NCBI GenBank assembly: GCA_052327205.1 | Contig: CM126202.1 | Coordinates: 390,290,001-390,354,000 of the forward strand | Direction: 5' to 3' | Length of the DNA: 64,000 bases | Origin: Somniosus microcephalus | Taxonomy: Eukaryota | Shown here: positions 51,551 to 57,181 of the stretch, one piece after another | How the letters are laid out: the number at the start of each line of letters is the position of its first letter | Position numbering within the stretch: the first letter of the stretch is position 1 | Made by a program: the position numbers and the translations under genes | The notes under the pieces: generated by a model | Told to the model about the DNA's origin: nothing | Seen by the model: only the letters and a program-made list of their open reading frames with translations | Database searches by the model: none

Positions 51551-52228
51551 ATTTGCTGGAGTTCTTTTGAGGATGTAATGAGCAGGGTGGATAAAGGGGA
51601 ACCAGTGGATGTTGTGCAGTTGGATTTCCAGAAGGCATTTGATAAGGTGCCACATAAAAGGTTACTGCACAAGATAAGAGCTCACAGGGTTGGGAGTAAT
51701 ATATTAACATGATGAATAGAGGATTGGCTAACTAACAGAAAACAGAGAGTTGGGATAAATGGGCCATTTTCCGGTTGGCAAATGGTAACTAGTGGGGTGC
51801 TACAGGGATCAGTGCTGGGGCCTCAGCTATTTACAATCTATATTAATGACTTGGATGAAGGGACCGAGGCCTAGAAATTCATTGACGCCACTTTTGGGGC
51901 GCTAAAGTGGGGCGTCCGCTAAAGTTTGCAGCCGCCGCCAAATCTAGGCCACTTCTCCGATATTCATTAGCTTCGCCCTACTAGTTCGGGCGAGCGCTAA
52001 AACTGCTGTTGGACGCCTCTCTTTGGGCGCTAAGCCGGAGGTGGTGATCGATAGTGCCGAGGCCGGGCGCAGCGCAGGTGCGGCCATCTCGTGACTGACA
52101 GCAGACACCCTGGCGCCGGCCAGCTCTTAAGGGGGAAGGGTCGACTGTGTCTGCTGCCACGCCCTGGATAGTGGAGCCCTCCAGCTAGGCCTGAACACTG
52201 CTGCTGGACCCAAATAGCGCCTGAAGAC

Positions 52229-52465
52229 ATGGAGAAGGCCCGTGAACGTGCGCAGCGCTTCTCAGAGCGTGATCTGAGTGTGCTGCTTGCTGCTGTGGAG
52301 AAGAGGCGCCATGTTTTGTACCCGGACAATGGCAAGAAGGCGACGGTCCGCGTCTACAGGAGAGCCTGGAGGCATGTCGCCAGCAAGCTGTCAGCCAACA
52401 GCGACGTCCCCAGGACCGGTGCCCAATGCCGCAAAAAGTTAAATGACCTCACACGCATTGTCAGG
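52229..52465 (+). CDS. Harbinger Myb/SANT-like protein, exon 1
   Basis: MEKARERAQRFSERDLSVLL...AWRHVA...RTGAQCRKKLNDLTRIVR (79 codons), then AGG|gtgagt. Confidence 0.85.
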
Positions 52466-52606
52466 GTGAGTACCCTTTCCAATGACCTCCTCATCCTTGC
52501 ATGTGCACCTCACATTATGGGCAAAGGGACCTGAAAGCTCTAATGGCCAGCCTTCATCCAGCAGCTATGGCACAGGCATGAGCATCAATTGCACATTCTG
52601 CACTGA

Positions 52607-52776
52607 ACACACTGGCCAAGCTATTCCACCATGGGAGGCAGTGCACACCAGATCATGGCGACACACTGGCCAGGCTATTCCACCATGGGAGGCAGTGCAC
52701 ACCAGATCATGGCGACACACTGGCCAGGCTATTCCACCATGGGAGGCAGTGCACACAAGATCATGGCGACACACTG
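52607..52776 (+). repeat. 54-bp tandem repeat, about 3.1 copies, in intron 1 of the Myb gene
   Basis: ACACACTGGCCAGGCTATTCCACCATGGGAGGCAGTGCACACCAGATCATGGCG at 52607, 52661 and 52715, partial at 52769. Confidence 0.95.
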
Positions 52777-54025: not shown

Positions 54026-54544
54026 GCCGACCCCCAAGGGCATCTGCCGTCACGACATGTGCCCCTCAGGAGCCTGCCCCCAGCCTTGCAGCAGCCAATG
54101 GCCTTACTTTGAGGCGGAGCAGCAGGGCGGGCAGGGGCCACCCAAAGATGGCCAAGGCATCGCCCTAGCGGGCCAAATAGTCGAATGTGTGGCCATTTGT
54201 GTTTGTTTCTTGAGGCCGAGAATTGGATGTTTGTTTTTTGAAGGCCGATGATGTGATGTTTGTTTTGGACGAAGGCCGAGAATGACGGCCATTTTAGTTG
54301 CCCTATTTTGTTAATCCTCCCCAGGTTGTGGGAGCGAGTAATGTGTTTGAGTGTTTTTTGGGGGTTTCCTCTGTTTTTGGTTTTCATGTGGGAAGGGCCC
54401 AGAGTTTGTACAATAAAGCATTTTATTTATTCACATTGTCCATGTTTGATCTTTGAAGTGTTTGTTGCCTTAACCGGCTGAGGGCTTGCGGAGCGGCTGC
54501 AATCATGTTCTATCATTGGCACAAGCCATTCCCTGACAGGGGGC

Positions 54545-55687
54545 CTAGAAGTGACGTTCAATAAGCCGACGACAGGCGGCCCTTGGACCTTGTGCGTCCC
54601 TCCTGGGCTGGTACTCCTCGTCCTCGTCGTCCCCATGCTCCTCCTGCTCCTCCTCCTGAGGTGGTGGTCCAACGTGAGGTGGCAGTGCCTGAGTCCTGCG
54701 GATAGCCAGGTTGTGCAGCATGCAGCAAACGACGACGAATTGGGAGACTCGATCCTGCGAATACTGGAGGGCTCCCCCGGAGCGGTCGAGACAGCGGAAC
54801 CGTTGCTTGAGCACGCCGATTGTTTGTTCTATGAGGCTCCTCGTCGCTTGATGGCTCTCGTATGCCTCTTCAGCAGGGGTCGTGGGCGCGCGGAGCGGGG
54901 TCATGAGCCAGGTACACAAAGGATAGCCTTTGTCCCCGATAAGCCATCCTCTTGGGGGAGGCTGTGCCTGGAACATGTCAGCCACAGTTGTCTGTCGCAG
55001 GATAAAGGCATCGTGGCTGCTGCCTGGAAAGCGGGCATTGACAGCTAGGATGCGCTGCCTGTGGTCACACACCAGCTGTACATTGAGGGAATGGTAGCCC
55101 TTCCGGTTGCGGTAATCCTCGGCATGCTCAAGAGGTGCCCGCAAAGCCACATGCGTGCAGTCAATGGCGCCCTGCACCATGGGGAAGCCCGCTATTCTTG
55201 CAAACCCCACTGCACGCTGCTGCTGCTTGTCCAGGGTCATGGGGAAGGAGATGAATTGATGTCTCCTTCTGAAAAGGGCTTCGGTCACCTGGCGGATGCA
55301 GCAATGCACGGCGAACTGGGAGATGTTAGCGATGTCCCCAGTAGCGGATTGGAAGGAGCCGGAGGCATAGAAGTTGAGAGCCACCGTCACCTTCACTGCC
55401 ACCGACAGAGACGTCCTGCGCATCAGCTGTGGCTGCAGATCTCTCTGAAGCAGCCGGCAGATGTCTGCAACCACCTCCCTTCGGAATCGCAGCCTCCTAA
55501 CACACATCGCGGCAGACATGGTCAGATAGGAGGTCTGCTGGCGGTATACCCTGCGTGGGTCAGGCCTCAGTTGGCAACGCCTGTTGCCCCCTCTGCATCT
55601 AGCCAGGGCTGCCACTCTCTCACGGCGTCTGTAAGCCCTTCTGGCATAAGGCTGAAATTCAGCGTTGCCACCCAATGCAGCCCCCAT
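54545..55687 (-). CDS. Harbinger DDE transposase (HARBI1-like), uninterrupted 380-aa ORF
   Basis: MGAALGG start as in sister copy B, HTH region VALNFYASGSFQ..GDIANISQ, and catalytic motifs GAIDCTHV, GSSHDAFIL, IGDKGYPL and IEQTIGVLKQRFRCL. Confidence 0.92.
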   Translation of the reverse strand: MGAALGGNAEFQPYARRAYRRRERVAALARCRGGNRRCQLRPDPRRVYRQQTSYLTMSAAMCVRRLRFRREVVADICRLLQRDLQPQLMRRTSLSVAVKVTVALNFYASGSFQSATGDIANISQFAVHCCIRQVTEALFRRRHQFISFPMTLDKQQQRAVGFARIAGFPMVQGAIDCTHVALRAPLEHAEDYRNRKGYHSLNVQLVCDHRQRILAVNARFPGSSHDAFILRQTTVADMFQAQPPPRGWLIGDKGYPLCTWLMTPLRAPTTPAEEAYESHQATRSLIEQTIGVLKQRFRCLDRSGGALQYSQDRVSQFVVVCCMLHNLAIRRTQALPPHVGPPPQEEEQEEHGDDEDEEYQPRRDAQGPRAACRRLIERHF

Positions 55688-57181
55688 TATATGCTGGCAA
55701 ACACTGAGCTCTGAATGATGGCTAAGATAATTGGTAAGCCATGGCCTGAGCCAAAAATACCTGTCCAAGTGTTGGTCCAAACCAGTAAACTCTCTTCCTT
55801 GGTCTCTGTCCAAAAAACCGTTGCACAAGAGTGAATGCTGCAAAATGGCTGGCCTTTATACTGCTGGGTAAGTGCCCTTTAATTAGCGCTCCCCCCCGGC
55901 CCGGCTGGCCTGTGTACCGTTCCACTTCACAGTCGCTCGGGACGCCCGGCGCACAATGGGCCGGCGTGAGTGAAGTTCCGGTTTGGGGCGCACAAAGGGC
56001 GTTGCACTATTAAATGACGTCATGATCTGCGCGCGCAGCAGGGCGCGCGCTAAGACTTTGCGCCGGCGCTAAATGTGTCCTGAAGTTGGGGAGAGGCGCA
56101 GATCGCGCTGCGCCCGGGCGATAAGCGCCTAGCGCTCGAGATCTACTCCCCCTAAGGCGCTAACGGCTGGCGCGCCCAACTGAATTTCTAGGCCCGAGTG
56201 TAATGTAGCCAAATTTGCTGATGATGCAAAGCTAGGTGGAAAAGCAAGTTGTGAAGAGGACACACAGAATCTGCAAAGGGATATAGACAGGCTAAGTGAG
56301 TGGGCAAACATTTGGCAGATGGAGTATAATGTGGGAAAATGTGAGGTTACCCACTTTGGTAAGAAAAATAAAAAAGCAAATTATTATTTAAATGGAGAGA
56401 GATTACAAAATGCTGCAGTAAAGAGGGACCTAGGTGTTCTTGTGCATGAAACAAAAAGTTAGCATACAGGTACAGCAAGTAATCAGGAAGGCAAATGGAA
56501 TGTTGGCCTTGGTTGGAGTCTAAAAGCAGGGAAATCCTGCTACAACTGTACAGGGTATTGGTGAGATCACACCTTGAGTACTGTGTACAGTTCTGATCTC
56601 CTTATTTAAGGAGATATATGCTTGCATTGGAGGCAGTTCAGAGAAGGTTCACGAGGTTGATTCCTGAGACGAAGGGGTTCACTTATGAAGAAAGGTTGAG
56701 CAAGTTGGACCTATATTCATTGGAGTTTAGAAGAATGAGAGGTGATCTTATTAAAACATATAAGATACTGAGGGGGCTCAACAAGGTAGAGGCAGAGAAG
56801 ATGTTTCCTCTCATGGGGGAATCTAGAACTAGGGGGCATAGTTTCAGAATAAGGGATCACCCATTTAAAACTGAGATGAGGAGGAATTTCTTCTGAGGGT
56901 CGTAAATCTGTGGAATTTTCTGCCCCAGAGAGCTGTGGAGGCTGGATCATTGAATATATTTAAGGTGGAGGTAGACAGATTTTTGAACAATAAGGGAGTG
57001 ATGGGTTATGGGTGCGGGCAGGGATATGGAGCTGAGCCCAAGATCAGATCAGCCATGATTTCATTAAATGGCGGAGCAGGCTCGAGGGGCCAAATGGCCT
57101 ACTCCTGCTCCTATTCCTTATGTTCTTATGAAAGCGGTTAAAAAAGCATACGGGATCCTTGGCTTCATAAATAGAGGCATA

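Follow-up and report, generated by a model that had tools for sequence, protein, structure and literature searches.

The zebrafish transposon Harbinger3_DR is reportedly the element reconstructed by Sinzelle et al. in 2008. Two-gene elements of its kind, grouped in the PHIS superfamily, combine a DDE_Tnp_4 transposase and a separate Myb/SANT gene with short terminal inverted repeats (TIRs) and a target site duplication (TSD) of 3 bp. All of these features are present in the Harbinger element described here, which occupies positions 51868-56194 (4327 bp) of a 64,000-nt window from Somniosus microcephalus, contig CM126202.1; the window is the whole stretch of DNA analyzed, and all coordinates are positions within it. 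The element is a new member of this already known two-gene kind. On balance, the copy is likely to be a full-length, autonomous-type PIF/Harbinger (PHIS) element from a cartilaginous-fish radiation, which is barely decayed and probably no longer mobilizes itself.

Harbinger3_DR, listed as NuwaI-2_DRer in Table S5 of PMC4482050, is described in terms close to those of the present element: DDE_Tnp_4 and Myb_DNA-bind_5 genes within about 4.2-4.3 kb, a short TIR (12 bp, compared with 14 bp here), a 3-bp TSD and a repeated subterminal motif. The likeness is one of described structure. The TSD of NuwaI elements is given as CWG and their TIRs usually start with GGG, whereas CGA and GGC are found here, and the Myb protein of Harbinger3_DR has 221 amino acids (aa) as opposed to more than 430. 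The NuwaII elements, including turtle Harbinger-n_CPB and fugu SENKUSHA1, are described with TIRs of 13-46 bp starting with GG, a length of 4-5 kb and two open reading frames (ORFs), as in the present element. Their target is C(TNA)G, with the duplicated bases in brackets; SENKUSHA1 has C(NNN)G instead. The site occupied here, C(CGA)G, has C instead of T as the first TSD base, which is a single mismatch to the former, and fits the latter; it is the only insertion site known for the family. The turtle NuwaII families are described as carrying Myb_DNA-bind_4, in contrast to Myb_DNA-bind_5 here. Pangu elements have an ANT duplication and a second ORF that usually lacks a known motif; CGA does not match ANT in either orientation, and the second gene here encodes a Myb domain. 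ANT-type TSDs are seen at some neighboring elements. The strict PIF/Harbinger definition (Han 2015) calls for a TWA duplication, but the duplication is CGA here, and none of the six other paired elements in the window has TAA or TTA.

Two-ORF Harbingers are already documented in vertebrates. PMC4482050 catalogs 88 PIF/Harbinger, 11 NuwaI and 22 NuwaII families with two intact ORFs across eukaryotes, fish and turtle included, and a recent Harbinger expansion is described in a newt. Harbinger-Snek of sea kraits (PMC8437027) is likewise a two-ORF element with intact copies and non-autonomous derivatives, but 269 of its copies are reported as intact in L. colubrina, and RNA-seq supports it in L. 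laticaudata, as opposed to one damaged copy here. The novelty premise of an earlier sequence-only reading of this DNA, which pointed out that the characterized vertebrate example was reconstructed from inactive copies, is therefore overstated. For cartilaginous fishes, PMC9179366 records that Harbingers were not detected in the elephant shark and leaves the other species open. Searches of the open-licence literature listed neither a study of Harbinger families in elasmobranchs nor a vertebrate Harbinger whose native form had been shown to be active in cells. About 130 DNA transposons were reportedly surveyed in human cells in 2024, which may bear on native vertebrate Harbinger activity.

Termini, insertion site and genes

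The TIR arms at 51868-51881 (forward strand, beginning with GG) and 56181-56194 (reverse strand) are complementary at 14 of 14 bp, and an exact CGA stands on either side of the element on the forward strand (51865-51867 and 56195-56197), with the CpG kept in both copies. The element boundaries and the TSD are secure because the flanks without the element give one open frame: when the element and one CGA are removed in silico, the reverse-transcriptase frame of a long interspersed nuclear element (LINE) is open across the junction. The chance expectation for such a TIR pair and TSD in two end regions is roughly 1e-5. Other boundaries were rejected: with one more base the TIR arms are no longer complementary, and with a shorter TIR no duplication remains. 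The decayed left half of the host LINE lies at 51460-51864 and its right half, continuing the same frame, at 56198-57000, both on the forward strand. The right half matches Pfam RVT_1 with E 0.0019, which is under the curated cut-off; from its motifs we take this LINE to be CR1-like. It carries several stops and frameshifts and is older than the Harbinger insertion.

The transposase is encoded on the reverse strand by an intronless ORF of 380 aa (55687-54545). It matches DDE_Tnp_4 (PF13359) with E 1.9e-35 and 122 bits against a cut-off of 24.8, and the catalytic triad is present as D176 (55162-55160), D252 (54934-54932) and E287 (54829-54827). An RNase H-like DDE fold is predicted. Comparison of the protein with the Protein Data Bank (PDB) by sequence gave no meaningful match, and a Foldseek search with the model gave none at E 0.001. 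With VIA-align, the model matched piggyBac (Z 9.5, root-mean-square deviation 5.3, 235 residues aligned) and Tn5 (Z 8.9, deviation 5.8, 244 aligned); a Harbinger structure was not among the matches listed. Because the piggyBac and Tn5 matches are tied with integrases, the modeled structure points to the generic RNase H-like DDE fold only. A TATAAA is located at 55855-55860 (reverse strand). Between this TATA-like box and the transposase start, an out-of-frame upstream ATG in good context (55740-55742, reverse strand) opens a 6-codon upstream ORF, which could act as a damper on transposase translation.

A homology search with an E-value limit of 1e-20 returned 608 proteins, and the 111 species-named proteins among the best 120 were used for comparison. 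Among the matches listed, the closest named relatives are proteins of cartilaginous fishes (Pristiophorus japonicus, Heptranchias perlo and others) annotated as 'putative nuclease HARBI1', with at most 68% identity. These are automatic annotations and, in contrast to the present protein, mostly decayed or domesticated, with an altered or missing triad in 59 of the 111; the literature searches listed no paper that treats them as transposon families. In a tree of 45 rows, comprising this protein and 44 of the 111 database homologues, the transposase falls among copies from Pristiophorus japonicus, inside a clade of chondrichthyan proteins (support 100/99); support for its precise sister group is weak (93/75). 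This position by itself points to a probable elasmobranch host. It keeps 92 of the 96 columns that are conserved at 80% among the homologues, with a conservation rank of 7 of 100 and 4 of 91. The same tree contains short-branched shark and ray clades that cross species and mostly have altered triads (P0004/P0011/P0014-P0017, P0007/P0009, P0013/P0021, P0020/P0026/P0074, P0028/P0029 and P0045/P0055). Their pattern looks like that of Harbinger transposases domesticated repeatedly within elasmobranchs.

The second gene is convergent with the transposase gene and consists of three exons on the forward strand with an open frame of 432 aa. Exon 1 (52229-52465) encodes the Myb/SANT trihelix domain, which matches Myb_DNA-bind_5 (PF13873) with E 1.7e-13 and 50.7 bits against a cut-off of 21.7. 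It is followed by intron 1 (52466-52804, phase 0), exon 2 (52805-52967), intron 2 (52968-53126, phase 1) and exon 3 (as found, 53127-54025); both introns are GT-AG. Exon 3 contains, in order, an acidic linker, a 93-bp duplication, an Ala/Leu/Gln-rich and probably coiled region, and 31 final codons that are probably out of frame. The Pristiophorus protein P0123, which is 53% identical over exon 1 and also aligns with exon 2, spans both splice junctions and the Ala/Leu/Gln-rich region; identity to Pristiophorus proteins is 50-53%. Exon 1 alone retrieved no homologue at E 1e-6. A profile search yielded three proteins, one of them already in the alignment, and exon 3 searched against 1.84 billion representatives gave one unnamed match, which was not used; none of these covers the tail. 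Intron 1 holds 3.1 tandem copies of a 54-bp unit (52607-52776) that differ from one another by 1-2 bases and are recent, while the in-frame 93-bp duplication in exon 3 (53278-53463) is old, its halves being 74% alike; P0123 is about 30 residues shorter there. Between the two genes, AATAAA signals stand back to back at 54412-54427, with the forward one at 54412 and the reverse one at 54422.

The subterminal regions share the 7-mer GCGCTAA, with three copies on the left (51899, 51994 and 52027, within 51882-52228) and four in the CpG-dense right subterminal and promoter region (55883, 56047, 56066 and 56157, within 55688-56180). The null mean for these ends is 0.29 copies, and no 7-mer reached seven copies in 300 shuffles. 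The Myb protein of Harbinger3_DR is described as binding a 9-bp subterminal site (PMC9710019), and by analogy GCGCTAA is the best candidate for the binding site of the Myb protein here.

From this anatomy and the two-protein Harbinger mechanism as described in PMC9710019 and PMC2836001, the life cycle of the parent family may be outlined. Two convergent transcripts, each ending at its own poly(A) signal, would supply the two proteins. The Myb/SANT protein would bind the repeated subterminal sites, with GCGCTAA the leading candidate by analogy with Harbinger3_DR, and would bring the transposase into the nucleus, as with Harbinger3_DR and Ping/Pong. The DDE transposase would then cut at the 14-bp TIRs and insert with a 3-nt stagger, in keeping with the 3-bp TSD; at this locus, the insertion was made into the older LINE.

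Several claims of the sequence-only reading are borne out by these data: perfect 14-bp TIRs, an exact TSD, an open 380-aa transposase with D, D and E residues, and, taken together, an autonomous-type two-gene Harbinger. Its three-exon Myb gene, said to be open from 52229 to 54025, holds as regards the exons, the introns and the 432-aa frame, but the final 31 codons probably do not belong to the reading frame of the family.

Probable lesions in the two genes

The transposase lacks one codon. The reading mentioned above had suspected that one residue was missing (AYESHQ, where sister copies have YN), and the deletion is real. It lies at 54859-54860 (reverse strand), where a conserved Asn is absent between Y276 and E277, ten residues N-terminal of the catalytic Glu. 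A residue is present in this column in 107 of the 111 named homologues and is Asn in 98 of them, and both in-window sister copies that cleanly cover the site read YN. The spacing between the second Asp and the Glu (D252-E287) is 35, as opposed to 36 in 53 of the 59 homologues that retain both residues. In the AlphaFold model, the helix that carries the catalytic Glu is split into segments 271-276 and 279-296, with a break at 277-278, whereas the control protein P0010 has a single 27-residue helix (241-267) at the equivalent place. Loss of transposase activity is likely.

The Myb gene probably carries a frameshift near 53930 in the sequence as given, with an assembly error as a possible cause. 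A run of five C at 53926-53930 (forward strand) leaves the register one base short in comparison with the sister copies. Past the conserved PPLPL motif at 53912, the sister 36890(-) runs in register into a tail that matches the +2 frame of the present copy. This displaced, family-like tail (53932-54168, forward strand) is open for 78 codons, Pro/Ala-rich and basic at its end, and is replaced in the sequence as found by 31 unrelated codons. Against two consecutive pieces of the sister, the +2 tail scores 66 and 62, values reached by none of 200 shuffles, while the 31-codon tail scores at chance level in all three frames of the sister. Measured between the anchor blocks that flank the shift, the distance is 145 nt in this copy and 200 nt in the sister, and the two values do not differ by a multiple of three. 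In a second sister, 57350(-), a short in-register stretch also resembles the +2 frame. The Myb DNA-binding domain and the coiled region both lie upstream of the shift. The likely course is that this copy, after its insertion, lost one codon in the catalytic-Glu helix and probably also one base in Myb exon 3, which removed the C-terminal tail.

Age of the copy and its present state

The copy is the least decayed Harbinger in the window. The observed/expected ratio of CpG is 0.65 over the element, compared with 0.10-0.12 in the flanking LINE and 0.36-0.40 in sister coding remnants. CpG-rich ends, which had been claimed, are thus found in part: the right end peaks at 1.2, but the enrichment covers the whole element and the left end is unremarkable. 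The other four transposase remnants in the window hold 1-6 stops each, two are frameshifted, and the CpG ratio is 0.37-0.39 in the two for which it was measured. In simulations of neutral decay, the probability that 859 codons stay free of stops was 0.24, 0.04 and 0.003 at 1%, 2% and 3% decay with CpG mutating 8x faster, and 0.47, 0.23 and 0.10 without the CpG effect. Because these 859 codons hold no stop, the decay is probably under 2-3%.

A young sequence need not mean a recent event, because mutation in sharks is slow. The rate given for the epaulette shark, 7e-10 per base per generation (PMC10587355), equates 1% decay with about 14 million generations by hand arithmetic, although the rate of the host may differ. 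It is consequently quite conceivable, if short of probable, that the copy merely looks young: the insertion would be fixed and millions of years old, its family would be extinct, and the very low mutation rate of sharks would have preserved it. Such an origin is compatible with the same anatomy and differs in absolute age; the two indels suggest a period without constraint, and no annotated protein among the matches listed is more than 68% identical. Perfect TIRs, the CpG in both TSD copies, the stop-free codons and the high CpG retention speak for a later date, and the host genome may be absent from the protein collection. Taken together, the data suggest that the copy records fairly recent jumping and is not a working element.

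Several points weigh against this account of the two lesions. The relatives used to tell a lesion from a family trait are 60-70% identical. For the Myb tail, the evidence leans on one decayed sister, as 57350(-) gave no significant tail score and P0123 stops short of the tail (score 43, reached by 14 of 200 shuffles). A codon-position test counted 7 synonymous changes and no stop for the +2 frame against 4 and 1 for the others, but was set aside because its upstream control favored the wrong frame. The loss of one base in a run of five C is a common assembly error. For the transposase, a spacing of 35 also occurs in 1 of the 59 homologues, and the one-codon deletion may be tolerated because the modeled fold stays confident, with a predicted local distance difference test score of 86 at residues 271-280.

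These points give some room to two readings in which the copy is less damaged. According to the first, which we regard as rather unlikely, the transposase alone is affected and the 432-aa, short-tailed Myb protein is the genuine family form, the frameshift having been fixed in an ancestor of the family. The frame is indeed open to the stop at 54025, Harbinger Myb-like proteins are described as fast-diverging (PMC9179366), and the upstream control of the codon-position test favored the wrong frame. But the +2 frame runs without a stop through 78 codons and resembles the sister's tail up to its basic end, and in a family that differs by 30-40% from its sister, a frame no longer in use should have decayed. 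According to the second, slightly less credible still, the copy is functional as found. Either the one-base loss would then stem from the assembly or the protein would not need its tail, and the transposase would tolerate the lack of one codon. All three catalytic residues and nearly all highly conserved columns are kept, the Myb domain and coiled region precede the shift, the shift falls in a homopolymer, and no damage is seen in the TIRs, the splice sites or the poly(A) signals; against this stand the 92% conservation of the Asn, the nearly fixed D-E spacing and the helix that is broken in the model and unbroken in the control, and sequencing error is an unlikely source for a loss of 3 bp that keeps the frame and lies outside any homopolymer. 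A domesticated, HARBI1/NAIF1-like gene pair retained by the host is highly improbable: both ORFs are open and the relatives include short-branched, cross-species clades with altered triads, but perfect TIRs and TSD, insertion within a LINE, a full DDE triad and the lack of a close cross-species orthologue among the matches listed argue otherwise.

A barely decayed copy that probably no longer mobilizes itself therefore remains the preferred account. It is less intact than the term "near-intact", as applied by the sequence-only reading, implies, given the one-codon transposase deletion and the probable Myb frameshift. Han (2015) regards families as potentially active when both ORFs are intact, and because both genes of this copy carry a probable lesion, the suggestion that this copy is possibly still active is unsupported. 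The copy is now most likely a passenger, which an intact sibling could move in trans; this is conceivable because its ends are intact.

The locus and its neighbors indicate that the host carries many Harbinger families of differing age, one of them barely decayed, and the element provides a nearly complete family template with ends, both genes, splice sites and a candidate binding motif. A vertebrate Harbinger that works in its native form would be of value because the vertebrate mechanism rests on the reconstructed zebrafish element. It is a speculative and rather improbable extension that the parent family is still mobile in the shark, with intact masters elsewhere in the genome, an undescribed elasmobranch radiation, a relaxed 3-bp target rule and a shared GCGCTAA code that lets one Myb protein cross-mobilize several families. 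If the family were still mobile, it would allow a vertebrate two-component transposon to be assayed directly in its native form, and it would provide a marker with which to test transposition in the germline of a lineage that mutates very slowly. The weight of the finding is limited by the damage to this copy and by the intact vertebrate copies already known from sea kraits.

Neighboring elements and the wider window

From 14 candidate terminus pairs in the window, the studied element and five others were kept, and 46261-46945 and the tentative 57182-59276, whose flanks do not match, were added by eye. The other eight pairs were left out because they were internal, mixed nested elements or matched poorly. 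A blastn search of the window with the whole element and both ends found no close derivative, the best stretches above 100 bp being 66-72% identical. The ends of the seven other TIR-bounded elements are 44-69% identical to those of the studied element (null mean 46%, maximum 53%), and most differ in TIRs and TSDs, the latter being AAT, CAT, AGT, ACT/ATT, TGT/TAT and ATA. These values are below the 80% identity used to define families in PMC4482050, and the seven belong to older sister families. The claim that the studied element mobilized the local non-autonomous elements is consequently weak. Cross-mobilization is still possible because the subterminal 7-mer is shared: GCGCTAA occurs in five of the seven and in at least two copies in four.

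A second full-length two-gene Harbinger, in opposite orientation and heavily decayed, is located at 34914-38769 with the TSD ACT/ATT. The first 12 bases of its TIR are the same as in the studied element, and it is the main witness for the Myb tail. Two adjacent non-autonomous elements (27166-28745 and 28997-30007) have TIRs starting with GGGGG and exact TSDs, AAT and CAT, respectively. Their left ends are GCGCTAA-rich and about 69% identical to the right end of the studied element. Harbinger transposase remnants are found at 24368-25308, 27680-28045, 35473-36300 and 62899-63381; the Myb domains lie around 21726, 38244-38467, 47808-48014, 58684-58902 and 60268.

The window is repeat-dense. No host gene is evident among ORFs of at least 170 aa between 16000 and 63400, and an Rfam search of the window gave no match. 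A near-full-length LINE at 39790-42669, presumably RTE-like from its motifs, has two open pieces of 373 and 553 aa; with a CpG ratio of 0.70, it is about as young as the Harbinger element. The window also has 3' fragments related to this LINE, at 4556-5740 and 25751-26842. Three long inverted pairs, whose members are 71-85% alike, span 42784-45684, 48342-50813 and 61247-64000; of these, the first and second have the appearance of LINE fragments in opposite orientation. A GC-rich tandem duplication of 165 bp (13580-13912), 94% alike, is situated beside a C-rich low-complexity tract.

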